DNA from: a virus
Length of the DNA: 64,000 nt
Virus record (IMG/VR): IMGVR_UViG_3300042341_001047
Direction: 5' to 3' (one strand)
Each line of letters starts with the position of its first letter. Position 1 is the first letter of the stretch. A program made the position numbers and the translations under genes. Below the pieces are notes generated by a model. That model was not told where the DNA came from. It ran no database searches and worked only from the letters and a program-made list of their open reading frames with translations. Shown here piece by piece: positions 12 to 60,097 of this stretch.

Positions 12-209
12 TTATTTACTTTTTATAATATTTATTATTTTATCCTTATTCTTCTTCATATATACATCTATCGTTTTAATCTCCCAATTGATATATAAAT
101 CCTCGATTATTTGAATAAGATTAGTAATTTTTTCACCATCACTAACATCAGATATATTCAAGTTTTCTTGATGTTCATTGAACTTTTGTATGTGTTTATT
201 ATTTTCCAT
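12..209 (-). CDS. small hypothetical protein with capsid-targeting-like N-terminus
   Basis: N-terminus MENNKHIQKFNE; TAATATATA late motif upstream. Confidence 0.6.
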   Translation of the reverse strand: MENNKHIQKFNEHQENLNISDVSDGEKITNLIQIIEDLYINWEIKTIDVYMKKNKDKIINIIKSK

Positions 210-290
210 CTTCGTATGTTATTTTAGTGTATATATTAAAAGAAAACCTAAATATATCTGAGTATCGTTATATTCAATTACTTTAAAATA

Positions 291-761
291 CTACAGGTTG
301 AATCTTATGCATTGTTCGGTTATGTATTTAGAGTGTTCTAATTGTAAGTGAGTAGCCAAACCAATAGTTAAGTGTAATCCAAAGTAAGGATCTGGAGTTA
401 AACCCATAGCAGTTCTAATGTTTCTAGCATCATCACAATAAACTTTCAACCACCAGTGACCTTTATCGTTAGATCTAATTAAAGTTGGATCATATTGTAA
501 AGTGATTTCTTTTCCGTGGAATATTTCTCTAGCTTGTGCGTAGATTTCATCATCACATCTATCATTGATAATAGTAACGTGAGTTCCTCTTAAAGGTTTG
601 TTCAACTTCAAGTTGAATCTTTTTTCTAAGAACCAAGCGTAGTAAGCAAAAGTATCATCATCGAACTTCACCATAGCAGTTTTCTTCCAACTAGACTGAG
701 CATTGTGCTTCTTAGTCACGTTAATTGGGTCAAACTCTATAATTCCTTTCAATTCAAACAT
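291..761 (-). CDS. 2H phosphoesterase family protein
   Basis: Two HxT motifs (GTHVTII, GLHLTIG) in 156 aa. Confidence 0.7.
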   Translation of the reverse strand: MFELKGIIEFDPINVTKKHNAQSSWKKTAMVKFDDDTFAYYAWFLEKRFNLKLNKPLRGTHVTIINDRCDDEIYAQAREIFHGKEITLQYDPTLIRSNDKGHWWLKVYCDDARNIRTAMGLTPDPYFGLHLTIGLATHLQLEHSKYITEQCIRFNL

Positions 762-765
762 AGAA

Positions 766-773
766 CAAAGATA
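766..773 (-). promoter_or_regulatory. Bacteroidota-type -7 promoter element (TATCTTTG)
   Basis: TAnnTTTG 4 nt upstream of the 2H gene ATG. Confidence 0.55.
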
Positions 774-813
774 CTTAGAAATATTAATATATACAAAAAA
801 TATAAAATATTAT

Positions 814-1248
814 ATGGTATTATCAACATTAATTATAATGAATTTCATTTGGATAGTTTATTCACTAACAGAAGGAATGAGAGAAGGTTTCTACTGGCAC
901 TATGAGAATAGTTGTAAAAGAGTATGTGACTTTAATGTGAATCCAATATTTAATCTACAAAGAGCTCTAATTTTATTAATAACATCAATAGTTATGGTAG
1001 GTATAATCGGATGGTACTCCCTATTAAGTTCAATATGTATGATACTAATTTTTAGCTTCTTTCACAACGGAACCTACTATCATACTAGAAATAAATTAAG
1101 TAATGGAGATTTATATCCTAAAGGATGGTGTGATGAATCTAGAACATTTCCACCATTTACACCACTAATAAAATATAATAAAAGAACTATAGCAATGGTA
1201 ATAGGTGTTTTATCACAAGTATTCATCTATCTATTTCTACTAAATTAA
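814..1248 (+). CDS. membrane protein
   Basis: Several hydrophobic segments; ATG 814 follows a TAATATATA motif and is preferred to the TTG at 703. Confidence 0.6.
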   Translation: MVLSTLIIMNFIWIVYSLTEGMREGFYWHYENSCKRVCDFNVNPIFNLQRALILLITSIVMVGIIGWYSLLSSICMILIFSFFHNGTYYHTRNKLSNGDLYPKGWCDESRTFPPFTPLIKYNKRTIAMVIGVLSQVFIYLFLLN

Positions 1249-1259
1249 AAATAAATATT

Positions 1260-1448
1260 ATGAAAAAAGAACCTGAAATGATTAAAAATCAATCAATGTC
1301 AAAAGAAGAAATCAACCTATTAAGAGAAAAATTTGTTAATGAATACTCTAAAAAGAAAGGTTGGAATTCAAAAGAATTATCAACACAACAAATGATGGAG
1401 ATAGTTTCTCACAAACAATACAAATCACCTGGATTAATCTTAGGTTAA
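1260..1448 (+). CDS. hypothetical protein
   Basis: 62-aa ORF, A-rich leader, ends at a terminator hairpin. Confidence 0.55.
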   Translation: MKKEPEMIKNQSMSKEEINLLREKFVNEYSKKKGWNSKELSTQQMMEIVSHKQYKSPGLILG

Positions 1449-1451
1449 GAT

Positions 1452-1484
1452 AAAAATATCCTGATTACATCAGGATATTTTTTT
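1452..1484. terminator. bidirectional intrinsic terminator
   Basis: AAAAATATCCTGAT-TAC-ATCAGGATATTTTT between convergent genes. Confidence 0.65.
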
Positions 1485-2550
1485 GCTTTTTAATTCCATT
1501 TGGATTATCACATAAATCACTTGTATAAACAGTACCAATCTCTGGTAACATTTCCATTATATCATATCTGTTTCCAACAAACTCTTGTTTACCTCTATGA
1601 TTTTCAACATATAAAGCGTGACCATTCCAATTAATACTTTTCATTTCTGTATATCCTTGTTCAAAAATCCATCTATAAAGTAAAGAAGTTTCTTCTTCTA
1701 TTTTCTTTTTAGAGATATACATTTTTTTAGTTTTATCACCGAATTTAAAGTATGAGAAGTAATCAGCAGAATAAACTGAATTATCATCACTCTCACCGGT
1801 GTCAATATCATCATAATTATACTGATTTCTTTTTACAGGTAATGTTTCCCAATCAATATTACAAACTGACTTACAAAGTTTAGATAAAAATTCAATATCT
1901 TGATGTTCACTAGTTGTATGTTCTTTGTAATAACCTACAGATATGTTAGTACACTCAGGTACCAAGTCCATAAATTTAGCAGAATCTGTAAGAATACCTG
2001 TATCATCTGGTTCAAAACTTAAATTCTCACCAGCCACATTTAATCGAGTGGCCAATTCTTTTGCAAATTCATCAGAACAACATCTACCATACCATTGGTG
2101 TGTAATAACAGAAGTAGTTCCTCTTCTATCAAAAGAAACAACCTTATTAATTGTTTTTGAAAATTCATTATTTTGCCAATCATTAGAGACTTTACCAGAT
2201 CCTATACAACCAACTTCTTCACCTAAGAAGAAATAGTAAAGTCCTGGAATTTTCTTTTCTATCATATACATCACAACAACCATACCTGCTTTATCATCAG
2301 CTCCTAAAATGGTTTTACCATTAGTTCTAATAAATTTAGTATCTTGAACGTGTGTTACTTTTTGTTGTGTTGAACAAGCCGTGTCTAAGTGACAGGTAAA
2401 CATTGTAGTTGGATTTTCACCAACAACATAATAAAAGTTACCAAACTTATCTTGTTTTGTTCCTTGTGGTAAATATGATTTTAAAAATCCCTCAGTTCCG
2501 TTCGGATATGTGTAACTTGTAAGTTGTAAAAACTTCTTCCTAATTCTCAT
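1465..2550 (-). CDS. M28/M20-type zinc peptidase
   Basis: CHLDT, LGADDKAG, GEEVG, SFDRR and EH zinc-ligand motifs. Confidence 0.8.
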   Translation of the reverse strand: MRIRKKFLQLTSYTYPNGTEGFLKSYLPQGTKQDKFGNFYYVVGENPTTMFTCHLDTACSTQQKVTHVQDTKFIRTNGKTILGADDKAGMVVVMYMIEKKIPGLYYFFLGEEVGCIGSGKVSNDWQNNEFSKTINKVVSFDRRGTTSVITHQWYGRCCSDEFAKELATRLNVAGENLSFEPDDTGILTDSAKFMDLVPECTNISVGYYKEHTTSEHQDIEFLSKLCKSVCNIDWETLPVKRNQYNYDDIDTGESDDNSVYSADYFSYFKFGDKTKKMYISKKKIEEETSLLYRWIFEQGYTEMKSINWNGHALYVENHRGKQEFVGNRYDIMEMLPEIGTVYTSDLCDNPNGIKKQKNILM

Positions 2551-2597
2551 TTTATATAATTTAAGTAAATATAGTTAAAAATAAAGTAATATACAAA

Positions 2598-3131
2598 TTA
2601 TTCTTTATCTTTATTAAAAATTTGATCAATCTTTTTATCTCTAATCCATGATTTGGATAATTCGGTTAAGTCTGAGGTCCAACCAGATATCTTATCAGTT
2701 ATGTAATAGTTATTCTCTATATGATTATTTTTAATTTCATGTTTTACATGATAATCACCAACATCATCTGACATCTTATAGTGATATTCCTTAGCAACGA
2801 TTATATAATCAATATTCAATTTATCTATAATCTCTCTATACTCTATAATAGTCGAAACACTAAGACCCCAAAAGTCAAATATTAAAAGGTCGACTCTAAA
2901 CAAATTAGAACGATTTTCTAATATCATTTTAAATTCGGAAAAATTATTAAATTCTATTTTATTATCTATAAAATATATAAGTGATGTTTTAGCAGAACTT
3001 GAACTTCTGGGTCTACAAATTAACAAAGGTGTTCTACCATCAGTTTCCAAAAAAGATATTATACGACTCAATGCGTATGAGACATCACTTGGATTACCAG
3101 TAATATAATTACTTCTTTTTATCGGTATCAT
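2598..3131 (-). CDS. degenerate RecA/DnaB-like P-loop protein with C-terminal tag
   Basis: ICRPRSSSSAKTS (broken Walker A), DLLIFD (Walker B-like), C-terminal IRDKKIDQIF. Confidence 0.4.
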   Translation of the reverse strand: MIPIKRSNYITGNPSDVSYALSRIISFLETDGRTPLLICRPRSSSSAKTSLIYFIDNKIEFNNFSEFKMILENRSNLFRVDLLIFDFWGLSVSTIIEYREIIDKLNIDYIIVAKEYHYKMSDDVGDYHVKHEIKNNHIENNYYITDKISGWTSDLTELSKSWIRDKKIDQIFNKDKE

Positions 3132-3525
3132 TTATATTCTTCATTCTAACATCAACTATATAGTTGAATTTATGTAAAAATCTCCTACCTATTAAGACAG
3201 GATATCTCATATTTTTTCTATTTGCTAATGATATAAAAAACTTATATGTTGATTCTCCAATTTTTATTTTTGTAAAAACTAAAAATCTTTCTTGTTTTCT
3301 ACCAAATGAACTTTTAACTGAAACCTTCTTAAATTTCTCATAAACAAATTCATTGGAGTCTATTCTAAATTTCAATTTACCATCGACAATCTCAATATCA
3401 TCGACATGTAAAGCTATACCATAAGCACCGGTATCTATTTTACCCTTTAACTTACCAATGTTCAACTCAGGGAAATAAACATTCTCATATCTCCCAACTT
3501 TCTTTTCCACATTTTCACCACCCAT
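3109..3525 (-). CDS. retropepsin-like putative protease (RimK-associated Zn_protease family)
   Basis: GKIDTGA, VKSSFG..QER and R..MRYPVLIGRRFL motifs. Confidence 0.75.
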   Translation of the reverse strand: MGGENVEKKVGRYENVYFPELNIGKLKGKIDTGAYGIALHVDDIEIVDGKLKFRIDSNEFVYEKFKKVSVKSSFGRKQERFLVFTKIKIGESTYKFFISLANRKNMRYPVLIGRRFLHKFNYIVDVRMKNINDTDKKK

Positions 3526-3659
3526 CTCCTCTATAAAATAATTTTATTTTATATATAATTTATTATACCCATCCATAGGGACATCTTAATTAACAAATAT
3601 AGTAATTTTTATTGAACAAATTGATAATAGTTTATATAAATAAAAAATAATATCATTTA

Positions 3660-4424
3660 ATGGCTCATAATTACGCTTTTACCTATGTAATAGGATACAG
3701 ACACAGAATAGACAGACTACAAAATTTAAGAAGAGTACTTGATTGGATCAATGGATTCTCAGGAGCAGAAGTAATAATAGTCGAGCAAGATAAACACTCA
3801 AAGATATCACATCTAAATCTAAAAGCTAAACATATTTTTATAAAATCAAATCTACCATATAATAGATCTTGGTCATTTAATGTGGCTTTGAAAAGCTCAA
3901 ATTCATCAGTAATAGTTTTTGGTGACTCTGATTTAATAATGGAACCTAATCAATTTATAGCTGGTTTACAAGCTCTTCAAACCTATGAAATGGTTAGTCC
4001 TTATCACACAGTAGTTGATTTAACACCAAGTGAAACTGGATTACCAATGGAAGAAGTGGTGAAAATTGAAAGACCTGGAAGAGGAGAAACAGATAACCAA
4101 AAGATTAATATTTCAGGCGGAATATCAATGTTTAGAAAAGAGTCTATCTCAAAAATAGCTGGTTGGAATGAAGACTTTATTGGATGGGGTGGAGAAGATG
4201 ATTATCAAACATTAAAAGTTCATAACTTTTTATCTTGGACAGAACTCAGAGCTAAGTGTTACCATCTTTATCATGATAAAGAACAACCAGAAATGAAATG
4301 GTATCAAAGAAATTTAGATCTACTTAAAAAGACATCTCAAATGGATAAGTCTCAGTTACAAAAGGTTATCTTTAACCAATTGCCAAAAATTGGAATGAAG
4401 AATAAATATGATAATTTCATCTAA
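3660..4424 (+). CDS. glycosyltransferase (GT2/GT7 galactosyltransferase-like)
   Basis: IIVEQD, FGDSD (DxD) and GWNEDFIGWGGEDD motifs. Confidence 0.8.
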   Translation: MAHNYAFTYVIGYRHRIDRLQNLRRVLDWINGFSGAEVIIVEQDKHSKISHLNLKAKHIFIKSNLPYNRSWSFNVALKSSNSSVIVFGDSDLIMEPNQFIAGLQALQTYEMVSPYHTVVDLTPSETGLPMEEVVKIERPGRGETDNQKINISGGISMFRKESISKIAGWNEDFIGWGGEDDYQTLKVHNFLSWTELRAKCYHLYHDKEQPEMKWYQRNLDLLKKTSQMDKSQLQKVIFNQLPKIGMKNKYDNFI

Positions 4425-5184
4425 AGATTTAGAAAAAGTATGTAACTATGTAGAGTCTACAAAACCTTCTTTACCACAAGCATCAATGAACTTCATTGAC
4501 TTTGAAGAAGAACCAAATGAAGAGTATCAAAGAGAAATTAAAAGAAAGAATAGAGAACTTGCTATTGATGCTATTATTGAAGATAAAGTAGAAGAGTTTA
4601 AAAACAGAGAATCATTTATTAATCCATTGGATAATGAAGGATATATACAAACTATATCTCCTAAACTTAAATCAATTAATGTTAAGGGTAAAACCTATTT
4701 AGATTTAACAGATATTTACACAGATATAATGATGACATTAGAATCATTAACATCTTCACCTATGAGTACTCCTCAAAATTTGAATATAAATATTCAAAAT
4801 GATCCTAGTTTAACAGACTTCGAAAATTTGATGGCTTTATCCAGAAGAGTTGTGTCTAAAATAATTTTATTAAGTAATTACATATCATCAACTGGTAGAA
4901 CAGGTCCTGCTAATACTATTATAATTGGTTTAGATGCTTATAAGTATCTTCTTCTTTCCAATGGAATGATGGCTTCAAGTAACGATGGTGTTGTGACTGG
5001 GAATATTAATGGAATGAATGTTATACCATCACCTTATATCAAATCAAATAAGATTATTATGATGAGAAATGTCCAGAAAACCGAGAATGGATTAAATGTA
5101 ATAAATTGTACAAATGATATGAGATACTTCTTAAAAGAGACTCCGAATTATTCTAAGATTATAAATTGGTTTGAAATTATATAG
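4408..5184 (+). CDS. truncated major capsid protein paralog with tag
   Basis: SKIILLSNYISSTGRTGPANTII aligns to MCP TKIAHASNYIATEGRVGPAQYLI; RELAIDAII near the N-terminus. Confidence 0.7.
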   Translation: MIISSKDLEKVCNYVESTKPSLPQASMNFIDFEEEPNEEYQREIKRKNRELAIDAIIEDKVEEFKNRESFINPLDNEGYIQTISPKLKSINVKGKTYLDLTDIYTDIMMTLESLTSSPMSTPQNLNINIQNDPSLTDFENLMALSRRVVSKIILLSNYISSTGRTGPANTIIIGLDAYKYLLLSNGMMASSNDGVVTGNINGMNVIPSPYIKSNKIIMMRNVQKTENGLNVINCTNDMRYFLKETPNYSKIINWFEII

Positions 5185-5716
5185 AGGCAACTCTAACCTT
5201 ATCATACTTTATTAGTAACTTATAAAGTTTTTCATATTCATCATTAGGATTCTCAACTTTTCGTTCATACCATTTATCCTTATTAAAATACTCAACTAAC
5301 ATACCAACTCTAAAATCTTCTTTTTTAGTTGGTTTCCAATATCTTTTTGATTCAACAAATGAGAATGATGTACCATTATGTAAATATGACATATTATCAG
5401 AATCAGTATTATACATTACAATACCCATTGGTATCTCAGAACCATCTTTGAATATCTTCTTAGCATTAGTCTCACCTGTATATTTAATAATAGCACAATC
5501 TTCGTGAAAGTGATTAAGTAGGAAAATAACATCTTTCCTTAAGGTATCATTATCAACACGACCATAAGCCATAACAGAGTCTTCATATTGACCTTTGTAA
5601 TAACCCTTAATAGGTAAAACTTGATATTCTTTAGCATAAAGAATTGAAATCATATCCTCTATTCTAGGTGAGGAAAGTAAAATAAAAGAAGCGTCTCTGT
5701 GTTCTAGTCCGATCAT
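5177..5716 (-). CDS. hypothetical protein
   Basis: 179-aa ORF with late motif upstream. Confidence 0.6.
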   Translation of the reverse strand: MIGLEHRDASFILLSSPRIEDMISILYAKEYQVLPIKGYYKGQYEDSVMAYGRVDNDTLRKDVIFLLNHFHEDCAIIKYTGETNAKKIFKDGSEIPMGIVMYNTDSDNMSYLHNGTSFSFVESKRYWKPTKKEDFRVGMLVEYFNKDKWYERKVENPNDEYEKLYKLLIKYDKVRVASI

Positions 5717-5734
5717 AAAGTATATATTAAATAT

Positions 5735-5890
5735 TTATACTTGATCTGTCACAGTATAGATATCAAGAATACTTTTTTTACTAAGCTTTTTTACTTTTGA
5801 AAAATAAATAATCGCCTCTTCTAATGTTTCGAGCAAAACTCTCGAAATGACCTCTTTGGAGTTTTTTGGTTTTAGATAAAATGTTTTCAT
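5735..5890 (-). CDS. small hypothetical protein (not in ORF track)
   Basis: MKTFYLKPKNSKEVISRVLLETLEEAIIYFSKVKKLSKKSILDIYTVTDQV, 51 aa, fills the intergenic gap. Confidence 0.6.
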   Translation of the reverse strand: MKTFYLKPKNSKEVISRVLLETLEEAIIYFSKVKKLSKKSILDIYTVTDQV

Positions 5891-5914
5891 AGTTTATATA
5901 TCATATATTTAATT

Positions 5915-7156
5915 TTAAATAATTCTAAATTCTTCTAATAATTTTGTCTGGAAAATTGCCCAAACGCAATCCCTGTATTTCTTTTGCATGATTATACTAT
6001 CATGTACAGTAACAACTTTAATTTCAGGATAAAGTGTAATTATTTGTCTTATTATTTGATTGAAAATTAAATTACTCTCAGCCTTCTGTAAATCATATGC
6101 TAGTATTCGATAATCACCATGTTCTTTTTTATACAATTTTATAAAATTATGAATAGTCGGGAAAAGATTTGAGAAGACTTTATCAGCCTTACTATTTGAA
6201 CCATTTCTACCAAAAAGAACTTTATAGGTCATTTCTTTTACATTATTTCTATCACTACTACCAATTGAATTCATAACATACTGGTAATAGTTGCCACTTA
6301 TAGTTAACTCCTTAAATAATTGAAACTCTTCCTCTTTAACCCATTTACTTCCAATATCTTGAATCATCTTTGCTAAAAACAAAGGTTGACTATTTTTAAT
6401 ATCTATTTCAGAAGTTTCCTCACCATCTATCAATAAACAATTTTTTCTAATAAAGGATTTTAATATGGTAAAGTTTGTATGCATCCTACCATAATTATCA
6501 AAATGATAGAATATGTGTTTATCATTTATACACTCAACTGAATATCTATTACGATTATAAACATCAGTATCATCTTGTTTCAACGCATCAAGATAGAATA
6601 TAGACCTATCAAACTGCACTTGAACACTAAATAAATCATCTACAAGCTTAATCTTAATATCATTGTCAATTAATGACTTTTTATCATCTACATCATTCTC
6701 TTCTATTTGTGATATTTTGTTTTTATATTTTTTAAGAAGAACCTTATCACAATTATTATATCGTATAATTTTACCTCTTAAAATATATTCATTTATTGCG
6801 TAGATTCTAGAATTTTTACCTTTTTGATGTTTTGATAAAAGAACAATAACTCCCTTTTCAATGAGGAAGTCCATATAGTAATTATATAAATACCCATACT
6901 TCTCTTTGAGAATGGAAGCCATTAAACTAAATTTATTATTTTTTCTAAAATAATATTTAAGTATAAGGTTATGTAATATATCAACTATATACGCTGATTT
7001 TAATTTTTCACCTTTGTATGTAAAGTTTTTTTGTTTTGATATCTCTTCTAAAGAGACTGGTAGGAATTGTAAGCTATGTTTTTTATTCTCTAAATTCTTC
7101 TTAATTGACTGATATGATTCTATATCACTTAACTTAACTACACTTGAAACTGTCAT
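5915..7156 (-). CDS. family-A polymerase-fold protein without exonuclease
   Basis: YGRMH, motif A EIDIKNSQP, motif B RNNVKEMTYKVLFG, motif C VHDS. Confidence 0.6.
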   Translation of the reverse strand: MTVSSVVKLSDIESYQSIKKNLENKKHSLQFLPVSLEEISKQKNFTYKGEKLKSAYIVDILHNLILKYYFRKNNKFSLMASILKEKYGYLYNYYMDFLIEKGVIVLLSKHQKGKNSRIYAINEYILRGKIIRYNNCDKVLLKKYKNKISQIEENDVDDKKSLIDNDIKIKLVDDLFSVQVQFDRSIFYLDALKQDDTDVYNRNRYSVECINDKHIFYHFDNYGRMHTNFTILKSFIRKNCLLIDGEETSEIDIKNSQPLFLAKMIQDIGSKWVKEEEFQLFKELTISGNYYQYVMNSIGSSDRNNVKEMTYKVLFGRNGSNSKADKVFSNLFPTIHNFIKLYKKEHGDYRILAYDLQKAESNLIFNQIIRQIITLYPEIKVVTVHDSIIMQKKYRDCVWAIFQTKLLEEFRII

Positions 7157-7196: not shown

Positions 7197-7412
7197 CTAG
7201 ATATTATTAAAAATTTTATTGATAGAATTTTTACGATTAGAAGCCCTTTCTTTAATAAGTTCAGCTCTTAAAAGATTCTCAAGATCTTTTTCAATATCAG
7301 TATTATGATATGAACTTATATCCTTAATCATTTCAGTGGTCCAAGTAGCTTTAATAGCTCTTGTTTCTGCTTTAACTTCAATAGAAGTCATATTAAGATT
7401 AATTGATTTCAT
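7197..7412 (-). CDS. 71-aa gp23 (capsid) fragment with tag
   Basis: VKAETRAIKATWTTEMIKDISSYHNTDIEKDLENLLRAE resembles the conserved T4-type gp23 segment; C-terminal RKNSINKIF. Confidence 0.65.
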   Translation of the reverse strand: MKSINLNMTSIEVKAETRAIKATWTTEMIKDISSYHNTDIEKDLENLLRAELIKERASNRKNSINKIFNNI

Positions 7413-14203: not shown

Positions 14204-14232
14204 AAAAAACTCAGAGAAATCTGAGTTTTTTT
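14204..14232. terminator. bidirectional intrinsic terminator
   Basis: AAAAACTCAGA-GAAA-TCTGAGTTTTT. Confidence 0.75.
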
Positions 14233-16337: not shown

Positions 16338-16339
16338 TA

Positions 16340-17318: not shown

Positions 17319-17347
17319 TTTACAAATATATATAATTTTCTCATAAT

Positions 17348-46855: not shown

Positions 46856-49603
46856 ATGAAGTATATTAGTGGAAGAGATGAATTTCTTAGAAAAAGTATC
46901 AATAAAGTAAATGAATTTAAATCTTTAGAAGAAAAATATCCATCTCTGAAAGAAGAATATAAATCATCTGATTTCGAGCTAATACTTGAAGATAGTGGTC
47001 CTTTTGCAAATGATATTCCTTGGGGTGACTCATTATTAGGTAGATTAATTAATAGTACAATCAGAAAAGCTAAAATACAAGCTAATTTAGTTAGAATGAA
47101 AGGCGTTGTTTCTCGTTTAAAAAGTACATTTGATGACTTACTATTAGAATCAAAAGTAAATGACTTAGATGAAAGTGATTTAGCTGAATGGGCTAAAATT
47201 AGAAACTTCATATATCTTTATAACTTAGAAAAGGCTGTAAAGAATATGCATGTTGAAAAGACTCCTTTACAAGAAATAAAAAACTTAACTAATATAGCTA
47301 TTGAAAAAACAGAAGAAACTGCTGATATACCTAAGAAAAATGAGTTACTAAGACAATTAAATGAATGGAAGAAGTTTTTAGATTCAATTAAGGAAGAAGA
47401 TAACGTAACCGAAGAGGATATGGATCCAGAGAAAAAAGCTGAAAGAATCTCAGGTGAAAAAGTTTATCTATCATATATTGCTAATTTTCAAAGTGCTCTT
47501 AGAATCGTTAATAAATTTATAGTAGCTAACAAAAAAAGATCAGACGCTGTTCTTCCACACTTAGCTGGAAATAAAGGGTTTAAAGACGGAAAATTAACAG
47601 ATGCTGAAAAAGCAGAATTAGCTAAGAAAAAGGTACCAACAACAGGAGCTACAACAACTACAGTTGGGGCAACACAATCTGTTAATGCATCACATGAGTA
47701 TGAATTTAATTGGGTTTACTCAATTAACGAGGCTACTCCACCAGTACCACCAGCTCCACCAAAGTCAGATAGTAAAGTTTATAACTTAATAAAATCACTA
47801 CATGGTGTAGTTGCTCAAATAATGCCACCAAAAGAAAAGGGGTCTCAAATTGAAGGTATAAATGATTTTCTTAAAAAGGATATAAATGCACTTAAGAATG
47901 ACCAATATAAAAACCCAATTAAAAAAGTATATCAAACAGTTGCCAAAATTACAAAAATTGGTGATATAGCTAGTTCTGAGAATGATATAAATGCTTTATT
48001 GGCTAGGCCTGAAGATTTGGGTAAAAGAATGGCTGAACTTTATATAGTATCAAAAACAAAAGAAGATGGTAAATTCGAAGGACTTGATAAAGAACTACAA
48101 GATGAGTTAGCTATCTTTAACACTACAATGAAAGGTGCTTTATATTATAATCTTCAGTTTGGAAAACAACAATCAACTGAAAAATCAAATAAACCCGAAG
48201 ATAAAAAAGAAAGTATTATTAAAAAATACGATCTATTTATGAAAGTATTTGAAGCCGATGAAGCTCAAATAACAGAAGATAAACCTGAGGATAAAAAAGA
48301 GGATAAAAAAGAAGATAAATCAGGTGAGGTCGGAGATAGACCTAAATCAGGTTTTATAACAAAGATACAAGACTGGTGGGGCCAAAATATGGACTTAAAA
48401 GAGTGGATGATGGACAAAGCCGAGGTTGAAAAAATAAGAATAAACTTAGATAAAAAACTTGCTGAGAAAAAAGATTCTGTTACAATAAGTAGTATTGATC
48501 CTGTATTAGAAATATGTAAAATATTTAATAGATCTTATAGAATACACACAACACAAGTCATACCAACTGGAAGAAGTGGTGGTAAAGTATCTAACAAAAC
48601 ATACATGGAATATACTTGTTTTGGTTCAGGATCACCAGCAAATGCAGGTGAAGGAGGAGGACCATATAGAAATAATAAGTTATTTGATCAATGGTATGAT
48701 GCTGTGATGGATATACTTAAAGAGAAAAAATATCAACCTATATTTAATGTTGGAACAAGAATGAAAGTTGGTGATGAATATATCGACAGAGCTGGATCTA
48801 ACTTAGGTAAATTTATGAGAGATATGTTAGAAGGTGATGAGTTCTTTACTAAGAGTAAAGATGGTGGTGGTCCACAATCAAAATTCTTAGATAAATATTT
48901 TGGATATAAAGATCCAGCAAATATAGAAAAAGACATAGCATATGAAGGAACAGCTGAGATGGATGAAATTAGCACAGTTGCTGGAAGTATGCCAAAACCA
49001 ATTGATATTAGGTTTGTAAAAACTCTGATACCATACACCGAAGCTAAGGAATTGGTAGGAACATTTTTTGCTATAAAAGACAAAACATCATCCGAATATA
49101 CTTTCTTTTTCATACAAAGTATAGATGGTGACTTTGCTTATGTTTTATTTAGTAATGGATTTGGAAAATTCAAAAATTCAATATCTAGAGGAGCACCAAA
49201 AGGTAACTATAATTCAAAAGATGGTGACGTTAAACTTGGAAATAATGTAACAACAGAAACAAATTCAAATGGATTACCATGGTCAATATATGGTGCAAAG
49301 ATAGCTATAAAAACATTGATAAATGTATCAGGTGGAATTGCAAATACCAATAAGAAAACATTAACTGGAATAGGATTATCAAAAGATGATGAATCTAAAA
49401 TTGTAGTTGGTGGTGGAGAAGAAAAAGGAGGAGTTAGAGATGAGATAACACCAAGTGAGATAATAACTCTAATAAAATTAGAAGGTGAAGTACCATCAAA
49501 TAATAGATATAAACTATCAAAAGCGGAAACTGATAAACTTAAAACACCTTTCTCTAAGTTACTAAGAGAAATACCAGAAATAAACTCAACAAGCTTTAAA
49601 TAA
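46856..49603 (+). CDS. large putative virion/internal protein
   Basis: About 915 aa; late motif; internal IIKKYDLFMKVFE motif and low-complexity linkers. Confidence 0.6.
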   Translation: MKYISGRDEFLRKSINKVNEFKSLEEKYPSLKEEYKSSDFELILEDSGPFANDIPWGDSLLGRLINSTIRKAKIQANLVRMKGVVSRLKSTFDDLLLESKVNDLDESDLAEWAKIRNFIYLYNLEKAVKNMHVEKTPLQEIKNLTNIAIEKTEETADIPKKNELLRQLNEWKKFLDSIKEEDNVTEEDMDPEKKAERISGEKVYLSYIANFQSALRIVNKFIVANKKRSDAVLPHLAGNKGFKDGKLTDAEKAELAKKKVPTTGATTTTVGATQSVNASHEYEFNWVYSINEATPPVPPAPPKSDSKVYNLIKSLHGVVAQIMPPKEKGSQIEGINDFLKKDINALKNDQYKNPIKKVYQTVAKITKIGDIASSENDINALLARPEDLGKRMAELYIVSKTKEDGKFEGLDKELQDELAIFNTTMKGALYYNLQFGKQQSTEKSNKPEDKKESIIKKYDLFMKVFEADEAQITEDKPEDKKEDKKEDKSGEVGDRPKSGFITKIQDWWGQNMDLKEWMMDKAEVEKIRINLDKKLAEKKDSVTISSIDPVLEICKIFNRSYRIHTTQVIPTGRSGGKVSNKTYMEYTCFGSGSPANAGEGGGPYRNNKLFDQWYDAVMDILKEKKYQPIFNVGTRMKVGDEYIDRAGSNLGKFMRDMLEGDEFFTKSKDGGGPQSKFLDKYFGYKDPANIEKDIAYEGTAEMDEISTVAGSMPKPIDIRFVKTLIPYTEAKELVGTFFAIKDKTSSEYTFFFIQSIDGDFAYVLFSNGFGKFKNSISRGAPKGNYNSKDGDVKLGNNVTTETNSNGLPWSIYGAKIAIKTLINVSGGIANTNKKTLTGIGLSKDDESKIVVGGGEEKGGVRDEITPSEIITLIKLEGEVPSNNRYKLSKAETDKLKTPFSKLLREIPEINSTSFK

Positions 49604-50169
49604 TGAGACACTTAAAAAAATTCAAACTATTTAATGAGGAAGTTGATTTTGAAACAAATATCACTGATGAGCCTGATTTAAAAATGTCTAAGGAAAAATT
49701 ATCAACATTAAAGAAAAATCTTACTGATTATAAGACGAAGAAACCTTTACTAGATAAAGCTTACCTAACAGCTCTAACAGACATTGATTTAAAATCGGCT
49801 GTAGATGGAATTGTTGGTAAGACTGACACTTTACCAGAAAAAGATAGGAATCCTTTTTTAGTAGAATATTTACATGTAGCTAATCTTAAAAGAAAAGTAG
49901 ATAAGTTTCAAAAAGATATAACTAAGGATAAAATATCAAAAGATGATTTTCAAGAAGAATTAAGTTTAGCAACTGAAACTAGTACAAAAGCTGCTGTTAG
50001 TAAAAAGTTAACCGATATAAATACAAGAATATCGACTAAAACTACTACTATATCATCATTAGTTAAAGATATTTCAGATGCTCAAAAGGCTCTTGATACA
50101 AAAATGTCTAATGTAGAAAAAGAAATGATGGATTATATTAAAAAAATATCCTCAGAAACTCAAAAATAG
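49603..50169 (+). CDS. coiled-coil protein with capsid-targeting-like N-terminus
   Basis: MRHLKKFKLFNEE. Confidence 0.6.
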   Translation: MRHLKKFKLFNEEVDFETNITDEPDLKMSKEKLSTLKKNLTDYKTKKPLLDKAYLTALTDIDLKSAVDGIVGKTDTLPEKDRNPFLVEYLHVANLKRKVDKFQKDITKDKISKDDFQEELSLATETSTKAAVSKKLTDINTRISTKTTTISSLVKDISDAQKALDTKMSNVEKEMMDYIKKISSETQK

Positions 50170-50230: not shown

Positions 50231-53200
50231 ATGGCAATTCAAATTGGAAAATACAAAAGACCAGGAATCTTCATAGAAGAATTTGACAATTCAATTATCA
50301 GTAGCCCAATAGTAGAGGGAATTACTAACATGGTAATTGGTGTGTCTAAAAAAGGACCAGTTAATACTCCTATTAGATTAACTACTACAGGTGATCTTGA
50401 ATCTATCTTTGGTCAATTGGACAGAGGTTTAGAAAGAAAAGGTTCTTTTTTCCACAGAACAATAGCTAAGATGTTAGAGTCATCTCCTGTTTTCGCTATC
50501 AATCTTTTAACTACAGATGATACATTAGATTTAATTGAATATAAATCTTTATCAGCATCTTCAGGATATGTAAATGATATAGAAAGAGAAGGACCTTATA
50601 GAAGATTCTTTGATACTACTGGATTCTGGAAAAGAGACGCTGAGTCTTTCATGAATCTTACAAAAAGTAATGTTGGATATTCTGAAAGAGCATTCAGCTT
50701 AACAAACTTATCTGATAAGTATGTTACTGCATTTGTAGTAAAAAGTGCTAGAACTGGATTTGATAGAACATTAATCGAATGGTATGGTTCTATTGAAAAA
50801 CTTCCAGCATATGTTAATGCTAATGACTTCGCATCTGACTATTTAGTTGATGTTATCGTTGTTAGTGGTGACTGGTCAAATTATCAAGAATTGGCAATTG
50901 ATACAAGATGGAGTGCTTACTTTAACGCATCTGGTTTAGTTAAAACTCAATTAAGATCTTTCGCTAATGATAGAAATGTTACATTGTTAGCATACTACGA
51001 AGGATTGTCATTGATTCCATATTTTAGAGATTCAAACGGAACAAACATATTTATTGAAACTACAATTAACAGAGATACTGATAGAACTGGATTATTCTGT
51101 TCATTCAATGCTGATTTAGTTGAAACAGACTATTACAATGGTTTATTAGACTTAGTTGGTAATACAATAGCTGGTGAGAATGAGACTGATATTGAATTCT
51201 TATCTTATAAAGAAACTATAGCTGAATCAATTGAGATTACAGCAGTTCCTCTTGATTTACCAGGTAACGTAACAGCTGTCTTAGGTGGTAGTTTTAGTTA
51301 TGTTCAATTTCCACACGCATTTGACTCAAGTTTACCAGGAGATAGTCCTGTATCAAGTGGTGTTATAGATGCTAGTAACTTCGATAATAGAACTTCTTGG
51401 TTTGGTGAGAATTATGTTCATAATGTTGTTCAAGACTCAACAGTTTCAGCAGCATCTGCATCAATATCTATATCATATAATGTTGCATCTGGAGCATTTG
51501 CTGTAATTGGTGATAAAGAAGTTCCTGTTTCTGGAACAACATCATTAGTAATAACAGCTAGTGATTATGCTTTTTCAGGATCACAATTAACATTTGCATC
51601 TGTATTCACACTTGATTCAACAGGTGAGATTTCAGTAACAAGTAATTTGGTTGGTAGTCCAGCAGGAACACCAGCGAATCCAACGGTTGCTTTAAGTGAC
51701 ATCGTTCTTGGATACGCTACATTTAGTATGATAAATCAACAAATTATCCCAACATCTGTAAAAATAAATCCAGTAAATATTGGAACAAGTAGTACAACAT
51801 CAGGTTTTGTTGATTACAAATTTGGAACATCAATTACAGATGATTATTTTATCGCAACACAAAGTACAGCAGGTTCAATTAAAGTTGAGTTCCAAAACAC
51901 GAACACATCTGCATCACCAGCTAACTACAAACAATATAGAAGATTTAAGATGTTCTATAAATTAGTTGACCTAATTAGTTCATCTAATAAAGATAAAATG
52001 TCTATATGTTTAGGTCCAAATCTTGGATATAGAAAAGTAAGTCTTTCATCAATGACTATAACTGATATTGTTGCAACAACAACAACATCAAACAAATCAT
52101 TTGTATTAAACACTGGTTTAACTAATGTTGAATTAGCTGATGTATTGAAAGGTTACTTATCATTCTACACAGTAGATAACGAGTTTATCCTTGGTACTGA
52201 TTCTGTATCTACAAAAGAAGCACAACCAACAGGTACTAATGGTGTTGTTGGTAGATACTCTAAATTCTACTCAAGATACTTTGATGGAATAATTAATACA
52301 GGAGATTACTTCTACTCAAATAAAATTACAATCGCTCCACCATTTGCGGTTGGAGATACAGTAAATGTAATATTCATTGATGGTGAAGATAATACAAATG
52401 GTGGAACAAATATGGGACCTACTTCTTCATTCGCTGGAAATAATTATGTAGTGATTGAAAGTTCAGTTGACCCAGCATGGGGTACTTATGACCAATTTAT
52501 AGTTCCTAATTCAGAAAAGAATACGGGTACATTTACTATCATAGATACCGATTCGTCATTAGCTTCAGACCTTGGATATGGTGCTGGATACTACGCATAT
52601 GGAGTAACTGAAGAAGTAGTATATGAAGAATTATTTAATGTAAATACTATATTTGATTACAATATCAAACATTACTTAAAAATGTATTTAGATAATGATG
52701 GAGTTTTAGAAGTTGAGTTCAAAGATGAAACGTTCACAGCAACTGAGCCGGTAGATGTAACATCAAATAATACATTCTTTATTCAATCAGCTAAATCAAA
52801 CTTCAAACAAACAATCGAAGTTGAATTACCAGCTGGATATATTCAAGTACCTAATAAGATACTTGTAACAGGAACAAGATACACTGAAGTAAGAGTTGGT
52901 GACTTCTTATCAGCATACTATGACTCAAGTTTATTAGCAATTGGTGAAGTCCCAAGAAAACTTACAAGAATTCTTTCTAAAAGACAATATAGTGGAGATC
53001 CTACTTTAGTTGAAATCACTTGTGACTCTAGAATCGCAACAAGTTATAGTGGTTCAGCATTACAAGCTACAAGATATACTTCTGTTGACAATTACGCAAC
53101 AACTTACAAGGCAATATCTCTTAAAGGATTTAGAATTAGACAAGCATCTTTACCTGATGGAACTGAAGCTAGACAAAACTCTATTCTTAACTTAGTTGCT

Positions 53201-54151
53201 AAAGGAACACCATTGTTCAAAGCAGTAACTAATAAAGAAGCAATTGACTTTAGATATTTAATAGATTCATTTGGACTTGGTCTGACTGAAAGATCTAAAC
53301 AACAATTGGTTGATATATGTGGTGATAGATTAGACGCATTTGGTGTCTTAAACATGCCTTCGATGAAGTCATTCAAAAACTCATCTTCTCCATCTTTTGT
53401 TAACTCTGAAGGAGTTTTACAATTAGAGTATGTAGCGAGTGGAGGAGACCCTGAAAGTTCACCAGCATTCCTTTACTCATTCGGTGACGGAGCAGGTTCA
53501 ACTTGTGTTGGTTACTTTATGCCGTATGTAGTTACAAATGATAATGGTAGACCAGTTGATGTTCCACCAGCAGCATGGGTAGCAACTACATATATGAGAA
53601 AACAAAACTCAAATGCAAGTGGTATAACTCCTTGGACAATTGCAGCGGGTGTTACTAATGGTAGAATCACTAACATCGTGGAAACTGAAATGGATTTTAC
53701 TTTAACTGATATCGAATATATTAACCAAGCTCAAATGAACCCTATCGTGTTCAAGAGAAATAGAGGAAATGTAATTGAGACTGAAAACACAGCTCAAACA
53801 CTTTACAAATCAGCTCTTTCTTACATTCACGTTAGAGAGGTCCTTATCGAACTTGAAAGAGAATTATCAAGTATGTTATTAGACTTCCAATGGAAATTTA
53901 ATACACCTGATATTAGAGCTGAGATTAAACTTAGAGCTGACGTAATTTGTGAGACTTACGTTTCTAGAAATGGTTTATTTAACTACTTCAATAAAATGGA
54001 TGAGGAAAATAACACTAATGAGATTATCGATAACCAAATTGGTGTCCTTGATACATATGTTGAACCAATCAAAGGTATGGGAATAATTGTGAATAACATT
54101 ACAATTCTTAGAACTGGAGCAATCAACGCAGGTGGTTTCATGAATGGATAA
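50231..54151 (+). CDS. tail sheath protein (gp18-like) with large insertions
   Basis: RPGIFIEEFD, G.SKKGPVNTP, SALSYIHVRE, FN...RA, D..NNT.EIID; 1306 aa. Confidence 0.9.
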   Translation: MAIQIGKYKRPGIFIEEFDNSIISSPIVEGITNMVIGVSKKGPVNTPIRLTTTGDLESIFGQLDRGLERKGSFFHRTIAKMLESSPVFAINLLTTDDTLDLIEYKSLSASSGYVNDIEREGPYRRFFDTTGFWKRDAESFMNLTKSNVGYSERAFSLTNLSDKYVTAFVVKSARTGFDRTLIEWYGSIEKLPAYVNANDFASDYLVDVIVVSGDWSNYQELAIDTRWSAYFNASGLVKTQLRSFANDRNVTLLAYYEGLSLIPYFRDSNGTNIFIETTINRDTDRTGLFCSFNADLVETDYYNGLLDLVGNTIAGENETDIEFLSYKETIAESIEITAVPLDLPGNVTAVLGGSFSYVQFPHAFDSSLPGDSPVSSGVIDASNFDNRTSWFGENYVHNVVQDSTVSAASASISISYNVASGAFAVIGDKEVPVSGTTSLVITASDYAFSGSQLTFASVFTLDSTGEISVTSNLVGSPAGTPANPTVALSDIVLGYATFSMINQQIIPTSVKINPVNIGTSSTTSGFVDYKFGTSITDDYFIATQSTAGSIKVEFQNTNTSASPANYKQYRRFKMFYKLVDLISSSNKDKMSICLGPNLGYRKVSLSSMTITDIVATTTTSNKSFVLNTGLTNVELADVLKGYLSFYTVDNEFILGTDSVSTKEAQPTGTNGVVGRYSKFYSRYFDGIINTGDYFYSNKITIAPPFAVGDTVNVIFIDGEDNTNGGTNMGPTSSFAGNNYVVIESSVDPAWGTYDQFIVPNSEKNTGTFTIIDTDSSLASDLGYGAGYYAYGVTEEVVYEELFNVNTIFDYNIKHYLKMYLDNDGVLEVEFKDETFTATEPVDVTSNNTFFIQSAKSNFKQTIEVELPAGYIQVPNKILVTGTRYTEVRVGDFLSAYYDSSLLAIGEVPRKLTRILSKRQYSGDPTLVEITCDSRIATSYSGSALQATRYTSVDNYATTYKAISLKGFRIRQASLPDGTEARQNSILNLVAKGTPLFKAVTNKEAIDFRYLIDSFGLGLTERSKQQLVDICGDRLDAFGVLNMPSMKSFKNSSSPSFVNSEGVLQLEYVASGGDPESSPAFLYSFGDGAGSTCVGYFMPYVVTNDNGRPVDVPPAAWVATTYMRKQNSNASGITPWTIAAGVTNGRITNIVETEMDFTLTDIEYINQAQMNPIVFKRNRGNVIETENTAQTLYKSALSYIHVREVLIELERELSSMLLDFQWKFNTPDIRAEIKLRADVICETYVSRNGLFNYFNKMDEENNTNEIIDNQIGVLDTYVEPIKGMGIIVNNITILRTGAINAGGFMNG

Positions 54152-57830: not shown

Positions 57831-57858
57831 AAAAACCCATCTTTAGGATGGGTTTTTT
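57829..57858. terminator. bidirectional intrinsic terminator
   Basis: AAAAAACCCATC-TTTAG-GATGGGTTTTTT. Confidence 0.7.
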
Positions 57859-58109
57859 GTTAACTTTATTTTTAAATCATTTGTTCCTTTTATTAATCGA
57901 TGATAAGTACCCATTGGTATAAATACTTCTCCTTTTATTTCTTTAGGTAGTTCATTGTCAATTTGAATTAACCAATCTGTTTCACCAATAGACTCAATTA
58001 TTCTATCTTCTCTATCACGATGCCACATAAACTCACCAGAATCGACCATCTGACTGAATTCTCTGATAAAAGTGTTATCACTTAATTTATTTTCTTGAAA
58101 TGGTAACAT
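57843..58109 (-). CDS. cupin-like small protein
   Basis: WHRDREDR ... FIP.GTYHRLIKG. Confidence 0.6.
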   Translation of the reverse strand: MLPFQENKLSDNTFIREFSQMVDSGEFMWHRDREDRIIESIGETDWLIQIDNELPKEIKGEVFIPMGTYHRLIKGTNDLKIKLTKNPS

Positions 58110-58693
58110 TATATAATCTTATTAAAATTTTCAATTAAAGACTCATCAAATATTGCTACATTTTTAGAACCTCTTTCTACTACATAAAATCCATCATATC
58201 CTTTAGACTTTATTTGATTGATAATTGGATCAGACTCAACAACTCTCCAAGCTCCATTTTTTACTCTCCATAGATAATGATAAACACTTTGTTCTTTTTC
58301 TGTTATATCAAATTCCTCATCTGTGTCCGGATTATATCCTTTCATACCATTACTAACTTTGATAAACTTAGTACCATTTACCTCATCGATATAATTATTA
58401 TCTATCATTTTTTGAATCACTGTAACTAAATCTAATTCTTTCATTGTTTCAATATCCATTAGATTACATAACTTAATATTAGATTTAAGTTTAACTTCAA
58501 AAACAGAGGCATCAGGAAATTCATCTTTCTCATCAAGTGAGGCAAAGTTTTTAGCAAAGTCTAAATTATTCGTTAAAAATATAGCACCTGCGAATCTTTT
58601 CTTTTCAGGTGGAAAATCACCTTTTCTGTTACCATGATATAATTTTTCACTTGTAGTAGATTCAAATAATTGATATGTTTTTAAGTATTTCAT
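58109..58693 (-). CDS. ADP-ribosyltransferase-like protein with capsid-targeting-like N-terminus
   Basis: LYHG...GAIFLT.N..FAKNFA...GYDG; MKYLKTYQLFES. Confidence 0.5.
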   Translation of the reverse strand: MKYLKTYQLFESTTSEKLYHGNRKGDFPPEKKRFAGAIFLTNNLDFAKNFASLDEKDEFPDASVFEVKLKSNIKLCNLMDIETMKELDLVTVIQKMIDNNYIDEVNGTKFIKVSNGMKGYNPDTDEEFDITEKEQSVYHYLWRVKNGAWRVVESDPIINQIKSKGYDGFYVVERGSKNVAIFDESLIENFNKII

Positions 58694-58696
58694 ATA

Positions 58697-59269
58697 TTAC
58701 CAAAAACCGGGATAAGTGCGTCCTCCAAAAAGATGACCATATTTATTGAGTCTGCAGCTCCAATATCCAGCTTTAGTCTTATCTTTCTTTAAATGACATT
58801 GGTGTCTAGCAGCAAATGACTTTCTTGCCTTAGGATTACTAACTTTAGCAGTTAACCCACCATGAACATCACCAAAAGAAATCTTTTTAACATTTCCTTT
58901 TGCACTCTTGACATATACATAGTATTTTTTAACACCACCACGCATTGGATAATTTAATTTAACATCTTTACCTTTATATTCGGCTTCCTCTCTTATCTCT
59001 TCTATATTTTCCATAGGTAAATCTAAAGGAACTAGTTCACCATTGAACATTCCAAACTTACCAATATCAGTTGATTCATATAATTCTTTATCAACATCAC
59101 ATAGATTAACTTTACCTAAATCAAATAATTGTCTAGCTTCTTTGATAACTTCATAGAAAGCTTCTGAACCTGGTCTGAATATATTTTCAGTAATAGGTTT
59201 ATTATTCTCTAGGTGGTATTTAAGAGACTCTGATACATTAACAGATTCTGTGAATTTTATAATCTTCAT
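58697..59269 (-). CDS. conserved phage protein (DUF6321-like basic C-terminus)
   Basis: KKISFGD, ARKSFAARHQC, AGYWSCR; MKIIKFTES. Confidence 0.55.
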   Translation of the reverse strand: MKIIKFTESVNVSESLKYHLENNKPITENIFRPGSEAFYEVIKEARQLFDLGKVNLCDVDKELYESTDIGKFGMFNGELVPLDLPMENIEEIREEAEYKGKDVKLNYPMRGGVKKYYVYVKSAKGNVKKISFGDVHGGLTAKVSNPKARKSFAARHQCHLKKDKTKAGYWSCRLNKYGHLFGGRTYPGFW

Positions 59270-59283
59270 AAATTATATATTTT

Positions 59284-59712
59284 TTATTGATTAGCAATTG
59301 AATTTATAAAGTCTGAAATATTCATAACTTTAACATCATTTTCTGGGTTTGATTGTTCAACCTCTTCAACTTCACCACTACAAGTACAATCCTGACAACA
59401 TCCACAATCTTCTTGACCATTACATTGATCACAACATCCACATCCAACTTCTTGAGTAGGTACTTGAGGTTCTTGTGAGAATTCTTCTCCTTCAGGTTTA
59501 ACCCCAACTTCGATTTCGATTGTAAAGTTTTCGAAATTTTTAATCTTTCTTAGTTTATCAAATTCTTTTTTAACCTTTTCTTGATCTTCAACTTCTGTTT
59601 TAAATGATGGCTTCTCATCTTTATCAGCTAAAACCTCTACATTAAAAAGAACTTCTTGGTCTTTGACTTTCTCATCCTTTTTTGTTTCGTTAAATTTTTT
59701 AATTTGTATCAT
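59284..59712 (-). CDS. acidic protein with Cys cluster and capsid-targeting-like N-terminus
   Basis: MIQIKKFNE; CGCCDQCNGQEDCGCCQDCTC. Confidence 0.6.
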   Translation of the reverse strand: MIQIKKFNETKKDEKVKDQEVLFNVEVLADKDEKPSFKTEVEDQEKVKKEFDKLRKIKNFENFTIEIEVGVKPEGEEFSQEPQVPTQEVGCGCCDQCNGQEDCGCCQDCTCSGEVEEVEQSNPENDVKVMNISDFINSIANQ

Positions 59713-59722
59713 AGTTTATTAT

Positions 59723-60097
59723 TTATTTTTGGCTTAATTTTTTTACAATTAAAGCACATTTTTCATATTCCTCTTCGGATTCCAACTCATCTTTATATTC
59801 CATAAGTTGTTTTCTATCACCTAATTCTAATTTAAGTCTGAATCTAACTTCTCTTAATTCATCCATATTATTAACTTCAGAGTCTATTAATTTATCAATA
59901 ACATCTCTATCAAATTGCGACATTTTTAGAAATTGATTCCAGTTATAAACATCATTCTCAGATAGAAAGTCTAAAATATTAACAACACAAGAATCAACTC
60001 TACTAAGTTTAGTAGTCTTGTTCTTTTTCTTAGAGTTATTAAATATCTTCTTAAAAAACTCTTCGTTGATAAATTGATTATATCTGTTAATTTTCAT
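59723..60097 (-). CDS. protein with capsid-targeting-like N-terminus and UVR-like C-terminus
   Basis: MKINRYNQFINEE; ELESEEEYEKCALIVKKL; ATG 60097 follows a late motif. Confidence 0.55.
   Translation of the reverse strand: MKINRYNQFINEEFFKKIFNNSKKKNKTTKLSRVDSCVVNILDFLSENDVYNWNQFLKMSQFDRDVIDKLIDSEVNNMDELREVRFRLKLELGDRKQLMEYKDELESEEEYEKCALIVKKLSQK

Follow-up and report, generated by a model that had tools for sequence, protein, structure and literature searches.

A short N-terminal leader on unrelated late proteins of Bacteroidota-type huge phages, a possible analogue of the T4 capsid-targeting sequence

The internal proteins of bacteriophage T4 are highly basic, and a capsid-targeting sequence (CTS) at the N-terminus is reportedly carried by IPI–III, Alt and gp24, in work attributed to Mullaney and Black from 1996. 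Among T-even phages, diverse internal protein bodies stand behind one conserved CTS (PMC3012670); the T4 version, MKTYQEFIAE, carries foreign proteins into heads (PMC8442874), and Alt is a packaged and injected ADP-ribosyltransferase (ART; PMC5512222). The subject of this paper is a comparable peptide, termed the leader, at the start of many otherwise unrelated genes in a stretch of 64,000 nucleotides of viral DNA from IMG/VR record IMGVR_UViG_3300042341_001047; this whole stretch is referred to as the window. The leader is very probably a portable address tag on late proteins, and we consider it somewhat more likely than not that the tag serves as a capsid-targeting propeptide, by analogy with T4.

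Two further systems invite comparison. In the phiKZ-like giant phages, which have approximately 50 head proteins, a protease of the gp21 family (SPN3US gp245, phiKZ gp175) likewise cuts after Glu, and propeptides are thought to target proteins to the prohead; unlike the leader, these propeptides are mostly at least 100 residues long and share no single short motif, only 8–19 proteins are processed, and the site is A/S/G-x-E (PMC5694885, PMC10052503). Polyvalent and solo effectors, for which packaging and injection are predicted, resemble the proteins described here in being late-made domains of conflict type (ART, peptidase, methylase; Iyer et al. 2017, PMC5512222). They are recognised by their architecture and by fusion to MuF or portal proteins, and have no short detachable leader (PMC5512222), whereas each domain found here forms a small protein by itself and carries a tag of its own.

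The window comprises bases 1022–65021 of an 86.8-kb viral fragment (the contig) with a G+C content of 28%, and is a fragment of a Bacteroidota-type huge phage from a lake. The nearest records, judged by the capsid protein, are the uncultured phages LR756502 and LR745206 of approximately 640 kb (W01 and W02; 73% identity), followed by LR756504 (W03) and the 735-kb LR756501 (W04), both at approximately 52%, and the Lak phages at 29%. W01–W04 are Mahaphage genomes (Al-Shayeb et al.), whose predicted hosts are Bacteroidetes (PMC7162821).

The leader is 9–12 residues long and occurs in two forms. The consensus of the short form is M-K-[YH]-[LI]-[KR]-x-[FY]-(N)-E-S, which in W02 becomes M-K-[YH]-[LI]-K-[KTS]-[FY]-(N)-E-S, and the long form reads M-K-[YH]-L-K-T-Y-K-[LI]-F-E-S. 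Both are amphipathic, with basic residues at positions 2, 5 and 6 and hydrophobic residues at positions 3, 4 and 7 (in the long form also at 9–10). The core, K-x-[ILV]-[KRQE]-[KTQ]-[FY], is present seven times within the first 13 residues of contig genes, against 0.09 expected from internal positions. The whole of W02 was taken for an iterated position matrix (PSSM), with internal Met sites as the null, and 132 of its approximately 990 open reading frames (13%) emerged as leader carriers, compared with 6 of 2879 internal-Met controls. A gapped hidden Markov model (HMM) built from the same complete relative, with a threshold of 8.3 bits that corresponds to the top 0.2% of internal-Met peptides, identified 137 carriers. 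The motif starts at Met1 in nearly all of the 132 PSSM carriers.

In the contig, the gapped HMM gave nine solid genes, named here by their first position in the window: 12, 13082, 29376, 37604, 38128, 38807, 49603, 58109 and 59284. In two of these (12 and 37604) the motif begins 3–4 residues after Met. Four borderline genes score 6–7.4 bits, namely 59723, 46856, 19774 and, outside the window, 72789; their leaders are backed by orthologues or by the variant MIKxFKLFE, which is the form of the leader in W04. Scores are low for 11641, 17870, 58697 and 27155. No internal Met site of the contig exceeds the threshold, either by PSSM (0 of 474) or by HMM. The motif is thus real and far above chance. 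A preliminary description of the window had counted about 15 carriers; nine solid and four borderline genes are found, strong and weak cases had been mixed, and about two-thirds of that list is sound by gapped HMM and orthologues. The genes are given below; 'box' denotes the upstream element [AT]ATATATA.

12–209 (−): solid leader gene, 65 aa, KHIQKFNE from residue 5; HMM 10.2 bits; box 20 nt upstream
11641–12387 (+): weak leader, MKVNKYFEF; probable nucleotidyltransferase; HMM below 3 bits
13082–13747 (+): solid, MRYLEKFVTYLNES, with a GTG start, operon-internal; HMM 10.0 bits; the W02 orthologue reads MKHLTQFFDYIKESSE; the box at 11641 heads its operon
17870–18376 (−): weak leader, MKIKKYTQIVNE; closes the head operon; MKLKKYKDIFEK and MKINKYKKFLEK in orthologues; the protein has a long poly-Asp stretch that recalls the acidic tail of T4 gp67
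19774–20163 (−): borderline, MIIKQFSLFEG; NFACT-R protein just downstream of the capsid gene; HMM 6.0 bits; the W02 orthologue, MIKKYKLFKEG, fits the W04-type leader
27155–27592 (+): MMKFINILTE, not a leader by PSSM (−4.4) or HMM (below 3.1 bits, outside the 26 best)
29376–29852 (−): solid, MKHIRKFEE; directly upstream of the portal gene, which the W01 orthologue likewise adjoins; HMM 20.2 bits; box 24 nt upstream
37604–38131 (+): solid, VYLKKFNEA after a 3-residue extension; HMM 13.5 bits; box 5 nt from the ATG; the W02 orthologue begins MIYLKKFNES
38128–38739 (−): solid, MKFIKTFES; body function not recognised; HMM 19.3 bits
38807–39484 (−): solid, MKHIRTFET; HMM 18.6 bits; box 24 nt upstream; GQAQPQ low-complexity repeats in the body, with a tail of poly-Glu
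46856–49603 (+): borderline, MKYISGRDEFLRKS, 915 aa; HMM 6.1 bits; box upstream; the W02 orthologue, MKYLSKRSEYLK, scores 11.8 under the PSSM
49603–50169 (+): solid, MRHLKKFKLFNEE; flanked by the 915-aa gene and the gene for the tail sheath; HMM 21.2 bits; the W02 orthologue reads MKYLKKYKIFLE
58109–58693 (−): solid, MKYLKTYQLFES; body of predicted ADP-ribosyltransferase fold; HMM 23.2 bits
58697–59269 (−): weak leader, MKIIKFTES; domain common to cultured T4-like phages
59284–59712 (−): solid, MIQIKKFNET; HMM 8.7 bits; W02 orthologue MKHIKRFNEA
59723–60097 (−): borderline, MKINRYNQFINEE; HMM 7.4 bits; box 5 nt upstream; the W02 orthologue reads MRKIDTYIEFINEE

The leader is widespread among the relatives, and its flavour differs from genome to genome. 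Matches to a strict DNA pattern, for which controls gave 0–4, number 57 in W01, 43 in W02, 23 in W03, 7 in W04, 11 in a further genome, W05, 5 in Lak-A2 and 2 in T4. By HMM, 400 kb of W03 holds 38 leader genes and the same length of W04 at least 30. One tagged protein has 1241 relatives, and the clade is abundant in public metagenomes. Searches by tblastn with 29376 and 58109 against 50,697 phage records returned an uncultured relative only, or nothing, and so gave no cultured phage with a proteome usable as a proxy. In the literature, the leader strings were found in no paper and no paper describing this leader was found; none of the best-ranked papers joins 'capsid targeting sequence' with 'huge phage'.

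The proteins behind the leader are diverse. With the leader removed, the 132 carriers of W02 fall into 123 BLAST clusters, which bears out the proposal of one portable N-terminal leader on unrelated proteins. They are small (median 161 aa), and only approximately 11 have a Pfam domain; these domains are NUDIX, NIF phosphatase, Hc1 histone-like, GH108, Peptidase_M15_4, methyltransferase, Zn_protease and DUF6576. The domain of 58697 illustrates that the leader is an add-on, because the homologue in Flavobacterium phage immuto starts with a different sequence, MIRLQEIVG, and in Methylophilales phage Melnitz the same domain is the C-terminus of a 650-aa protein. Structural models indicate that the leader is detached from the folded body. 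In the AlphaFold2 model of 58109 the overall confidence (pLDDT) is 89 and the body lies at approximately 90, but residues 1–14 are below 50 and residues 1–10 stand at 37; in that of 38128 (pLDDT 65) residues 2–7 form a separate helix, followed by coil.

Conservation of the leader is at the level of the peptide. Synonymous codon use at each leader position equals genome-wide usage (for example, Lys AAA 0.75 versus 0.74). Among 114 orthologues of 38128, the residue class is kept at positions 3, 4, 5 and 7, with interchange of K and R, F and Y, or I and L, while positions 11–12 are the most variable of the whole protein; E8 is invariant. Orthologues of 58109 swap long and short leaders through a three-residue indel that keeps [LI]-F-E-S, and here too the leader Glu is invariant. 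Because codon use follows the genome, exchanges stay within chemical classes, the Glu does not change and the indel preserves the end of the motif, selection acts on a peptide, with a hypervariable linker behind it.

Leader genes keep the company of head genes. In the window, the [AT]ATATATA box lies 21–31 nt upstream of the genes for capsid, protease, portal, terminase and sheath, and all 13 solid and borderline genes stand directly behind such a box or in an operon headed by one; four (13082, 49603, 58109 and 59284) are operon-internal and have no box of their own. Placement of the carriers behind late promoters or in late operons, as described earlier, therefore holds as a statement about sequence. 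W02 allows the association to be counted. Of the 35 leader genes at the head of an operon, 31 have the box, compared with 86 of 268 other heads (odds ratio 16, p 1e-10); taken by operon, a box stands at the head for 112 of 131 leader genes and for 277 of 811 others. The sequence TAnnTTTG is the Bacteroidota −7 promoter consensus; this host-type promoter alone is found at none of the 35 leader-gene heads and at 40 of the 268 others. The motif is thus not equally common outside the late class, where 'late' is inferred from the company of structural genes, and promoter class indicates that leader genes are co-regulated with head genes.

Some observations on these promoters stand apart. TAnnTTTG is enriched upstream of box-less genes in W02, which fits a Bacteroidota host and an early/middle class read by the host polymerase. 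The box ends only 4–5 nt before the ATG of many genes (among them 5177, 19774, 37604, 38128 and 45052), and the corresponding late mRNAs may be leaderless; structural genes instead have an A-rich mRNA leader of 21–31 nt.

The window holds a T4-type late region that includes the genes for portal, capsid, terminase, sheath and a gp15-like protein. The components needed below are:

20237–21988 (−): major capsid protein of gp23 type, which has an N-terminal propeptide (Pfam Gp23 3.9e-28, from residue 91)
22069–24186 (−): head protease fused to scaffold, 705 aa, upstream of the capsid gene (Pfam Peptidase_S77)
27589–29304 (−): portal protein, gp20 type (Pfam Portal_T4 1.7e-60)
41109–41393 (+): ClpS adaptor, adjoining the terminase gene (Pfam ClpS 7.3e-19)
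41390–43519: large terminase
50231–54151: tail sheath

The protease domain occupies residues 22–138 of the fusion, with a Peptidase_S77 E value of 0.0017 that is below the curated cut-off, and BLASTP aligns it to T4 gp21 (6e-4, 27% identity), pairing GEFDHP with GELNHP and VSSRAAG with VSSRGLG. In T4 gp21, we take these two segments to hold the catalytic His and Ser. The presence of a T4-type head module with a gp21-like protease is thereby upheld. Searches of Protein Data Bank sequences with the capsid and protease proteins gave no match. The scaffold part consists of approximately eleven 14-residue repeats, Y-S-E-Y-[LI]-A-E-N-L-D-K-N-I, followed by an acidic block and a tail that is conserved; read by eye, the repeat region is a probable coiled coil. 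This design is common to W01–W04 and degenerate in W05.

Sites of the type at which proteases of this family act recur in these proteins and in the leader. T4 cuts after the Glu of L-T-E-A in gp23 and of L-R-E-S in gp24. Both strings are present in the T4 sequences used here, and T4 gp22 contains S-I-F-E-S. The protease–scaffold protein has 13 [LI]AE sites (0.28 expected), 11 of them within the 14-residue repeats, and four [LIVMF]NE[SN] sites (0.2 expected); no hydrophobic-N-E-[SN] site is found in terminase or sheath. The capsid propeptide carries an I-N-E-N site, of which E-N is invariant in seven sequences and which aligns with T4 I-F-E-N. The commonest leader ends are F-N-E-S, L-F-E-S and I-F-E-S, and [LIVMFY]-x-E is present in residues 6–15 of 106 of the 132 W02 leaders, compared with 200 of 810 other N-termini. 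In every protease of the gp21 family studied, cleavage follows a Glu (PMC5694885); the invariant residue in which the leader ends is thus of the right cut type, as had been proposed.

These findings can be joined in one mechanism. The amphipathic N-terminal helix would dock late-made proteins on the scaffolding core of the assembling prohead; the gp21-type protease, fused to that scaffold, would then cut after the invariant Glu of F-N-E-S or [LI]-F-E-S, and the cargo, retained inside the head, would pass into the next host together with the DNA. The argument for docking, cleavage, packaging and injection is by analogy. The case draws together the enrichment of the motif, the unrelated bodies, peptide-level selection, detachment, the box class, the protease and scaffold, the site type, the kind of cargo, the T4 precedent and head capacity. 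As in T4, an extreme N-terminal amphipathic peptide of 10–20 residues ending in Glu precedes unrelated bodies; a gp20/gp21/gp23-type head module is present, the genes cluster in variable loci, and one candidate cargo, 58109, is a predicted ART-fold enzyme, comparable to Alt in T4. The differences are that approximately 130 proteins per genome carry the leader here, against fewer than ten in T4, that the bodies are mostly acidic and T4's basic, that the protease is fused to the scaffold, and that the leader, known from sequences alone, has no similarity to MKTYQEFIAE.

Several points weigh against a capsid-targeting role. The T4 CTS scores −21.4 under the leader PSSM, a score reached by 39% of internal-Met controls; homology is rejected on this score, the label 'T4-like' used in the preliminary description fails at the level of sequence, and the leader is to be called an analogue, not a demonstrated homologue, of the CTS because the latter does not fit the leader profile. 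Approximately 20% of leaders lack a hydrophobic residue at P3, and the T-F-E-S type has an aromatic residue at P2. The scaffold repeats are the same in W04 despite its different leader consensus, and co-variation of tag and scaffold is not seen. The tagged bodies are acidic, with a median pI of 4.8 versus 5.6, and only 5% have a pI above 9. The leader is also found on two peptidoglycan hydrolases of W02, which would be odd to package if they are endolysins, and 13% of genes would amount to a cargo well beyond that of any phage studied. A virion proteome of the uncultured clade was not found. The idea that the leader copies a scaffold repeat was tried and rejected: K-Y-L-D-Y-L-A-E is only loosely like K-Y-L-K-K-F-N-E, the PSSM gives all scaffold positions a score of 10 or less, and the repeats are unchanged where the leader changes, in W04.

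The main alternative accepts a late address tag and changes its destination. The leader would be read by a partner other than the prohead, such as a chaperone, a membrane patch or a phage-built structure, and the proteins would act in the producing cell and not be injected. Enrichment, bodies, codons, orthologues and detachment fit this equally well, late co-expression fits any late function, and both the acidic bodies and the 13% of tagged genes are easier to accept for proteins that are not packaged; the missing co-variation with the scaffold repeats also agrees with it. We nevertheless judge it unlikely: a candidate reader was not found, the invariant Glu and the same site type in scaffold and capsid propeptide are left without a role, and the purely late production of small effector-like ORFans and of a predicted ART-fold enzyme is best explained by storage until the next infection. 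A different kind of reader would be the phage's own ClpS, with the leader as a degradation or stability signal, perhaps after trimming to Tyr, Leu or Phe, that times the turnover of approximately 130 proteins. The window protein is a clear member of the family and presumably keeps the N-D-D and H-Y-x-G-K stretches of Escherichia coli ClpS, as read by eye. The leader is locked to the N-terminus, an M28-family peptidase is encoded at 1465–2550, and ClpS genes occur in W01–W03 but not in W04 or W05, which tracked the strict pattern across the five genomes. The link is broken, however, by W04, whose own leader variant marks at least 30 genes without a ClpS, and for this reason we rate the proposal as very unlikely. 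Furthermore, the leader begins with Met-Lys, whereas a ClpS degron has Leu, Phe, Tyr or Trp at its N-terminus, conservation reaches residues 7–11 and the Glu, which ClpS does not read, and in two window genes the motif lies 3–4 residues inside. Some jumbo phages are already known to carry ClpS genes, the products of which are probably adaptors directed at the host (PMC7824862).

Two other explanations dispense with a reader of the peptide. The carriers might be remnants of one much-duplicated, fast-diverging gene family. Leader genes of W02 are indeed clustered, with 51 adjacent pairs against 18 expected, and are present in every 50-kb bin; 14 of the 132 carriers share a second motif, [ED]-L-x-D-x-G, downstream of the leader. 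Yet the bodies include unrelated, well-defined folds, and the 58697 domain occurs elsewhere with another N-terminus or within a larger protein; a single paralogous family is ruled out for most carriers by the 123 clusters and these folds, and as a general account it is highly improbable. Conservation might instead reside in the nucleotides, as a translation start or initially transcribed part of leaderless late mRNAs, or as a recombination cassette of promoter and start, a notion encouraged by the boxes that end 4–5 nt before the ATG. This is the least probable of the explanations weighed, and it is excluded by the codon test together with the operon-internal carriers: 13082, 49603, 58109 and 59284 keep the leader without a box, orthologue residues change within chemical classes, and synonymous codon frequencies match the genome.

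The capsid-targeting reading also draws on what would be carried. One candidate is 58109, for which there is no Pfam match. All 50 matches listed from a structure search with its model are enzymes of the ART superfamily, at Z scores of only 5.5–7.5, and the best of those listed is a pre-ejectosome protein of cyanophage A4; Y19-H20-G21 are invariant, and an Atlas search gave a lead to ART-PolyVal (score 0.94). The earlier ART-like assignment is therefore backed by the predicted fold. For 19774 the call of NFACT-R stands (Pfam NFACT-R_1 1.8e-16, from residue 24), although its leader is only borderline. The nucleotidyltransferase proposed at 11641 has a language-model lead from Atlas to NTP_transf_2 (score 0.98), no Pfam match and a weak leader. 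The 'cysteine hydrolase' suggested for 38128 is abandoned, with neither a Pfam match nor a fold match at E ≤ 0.001 for the model of pLDDT 65.

Room in the head sets no limit. One copy of each tagged W02 protein would total 2.9 MDa, against 413 MDa of DNA, and the ejection proteins packed by SPN3US, a 240-kb phage, exceed 40 MDa (PMC7411985); head capacity is therefore no obstacle to packaging. We advance only tentatively the larger proposition, that a clade of approximately 640-kb Bacteroidota phages pre-loads each capsid with more than 100 mostly orphan, effector-like proteins that are injected with the DNA. If the tag does load the capsid, approximately 130 proteins per genome are marked as virion cargo, most of them without a known family, and the leader would be a predictor of injected proteins from sequence only. 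Each infection would then start with an arsenal about tenfold more diverse than those known so far. Much of the dark matter of huge phages would pass into a functional class acting in the first seconds of infection, with counter-defence and host-takeover factors as examples, and this would help to explain what some of so large a genome is used for. A short packaging tag that can be transferred would also be at hand for Bacteroidota phages.

Several neighbouring features deserve mention. The portal and protease genes are separated by an insertion on the other strand, at 24828–26708 (+), which encodes a complete exoribonuclease of RNase II/R type (RNB 6e-109, with CSD2 and S1); considered alongside the NFACT-R protein and ClpS, this enzyme hints at a set of functions in ribosome rescue or RNA turnover. 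Between 17200 and 17870 lie 670 nt without a convincing open reading frame. No transfer-messenger RNA was found at approximately 17413–17794, by ARAGORN over the whole window or by Rfam at E ≤ 0.01 over 17100–17950. Truncated capsid-like proteins and mini-proteins at 14231–15188, 7197–7412 and 4408–5184 share a C-terminal motif (for instance ...DIKIDNIL, ...KLNKILK, ...INKIFNNI) that is distinct from the N-terminal leader. Auxiliary genes at 31857–32966, 30625–31149, 15354–16843 and 1465–3525 encode a glutamine synthetase-like protein, a TnsA-like endonuclease, a Dam methylase with NADAR, and an M28 peptidase with a Zn_protease of RimK-associated type. In phage Melnitz (L041), neighbouring genes at 1901–6564 and 11004–11399 start with MKKFSELTSE, MKKFSEIIEA, MQGFKTFLSE and MKNFKNHIAEE; by their appearance, these N-termini may be that phage's own set of CTS-like leaders, one of them on an NMNAT-like enzyme.

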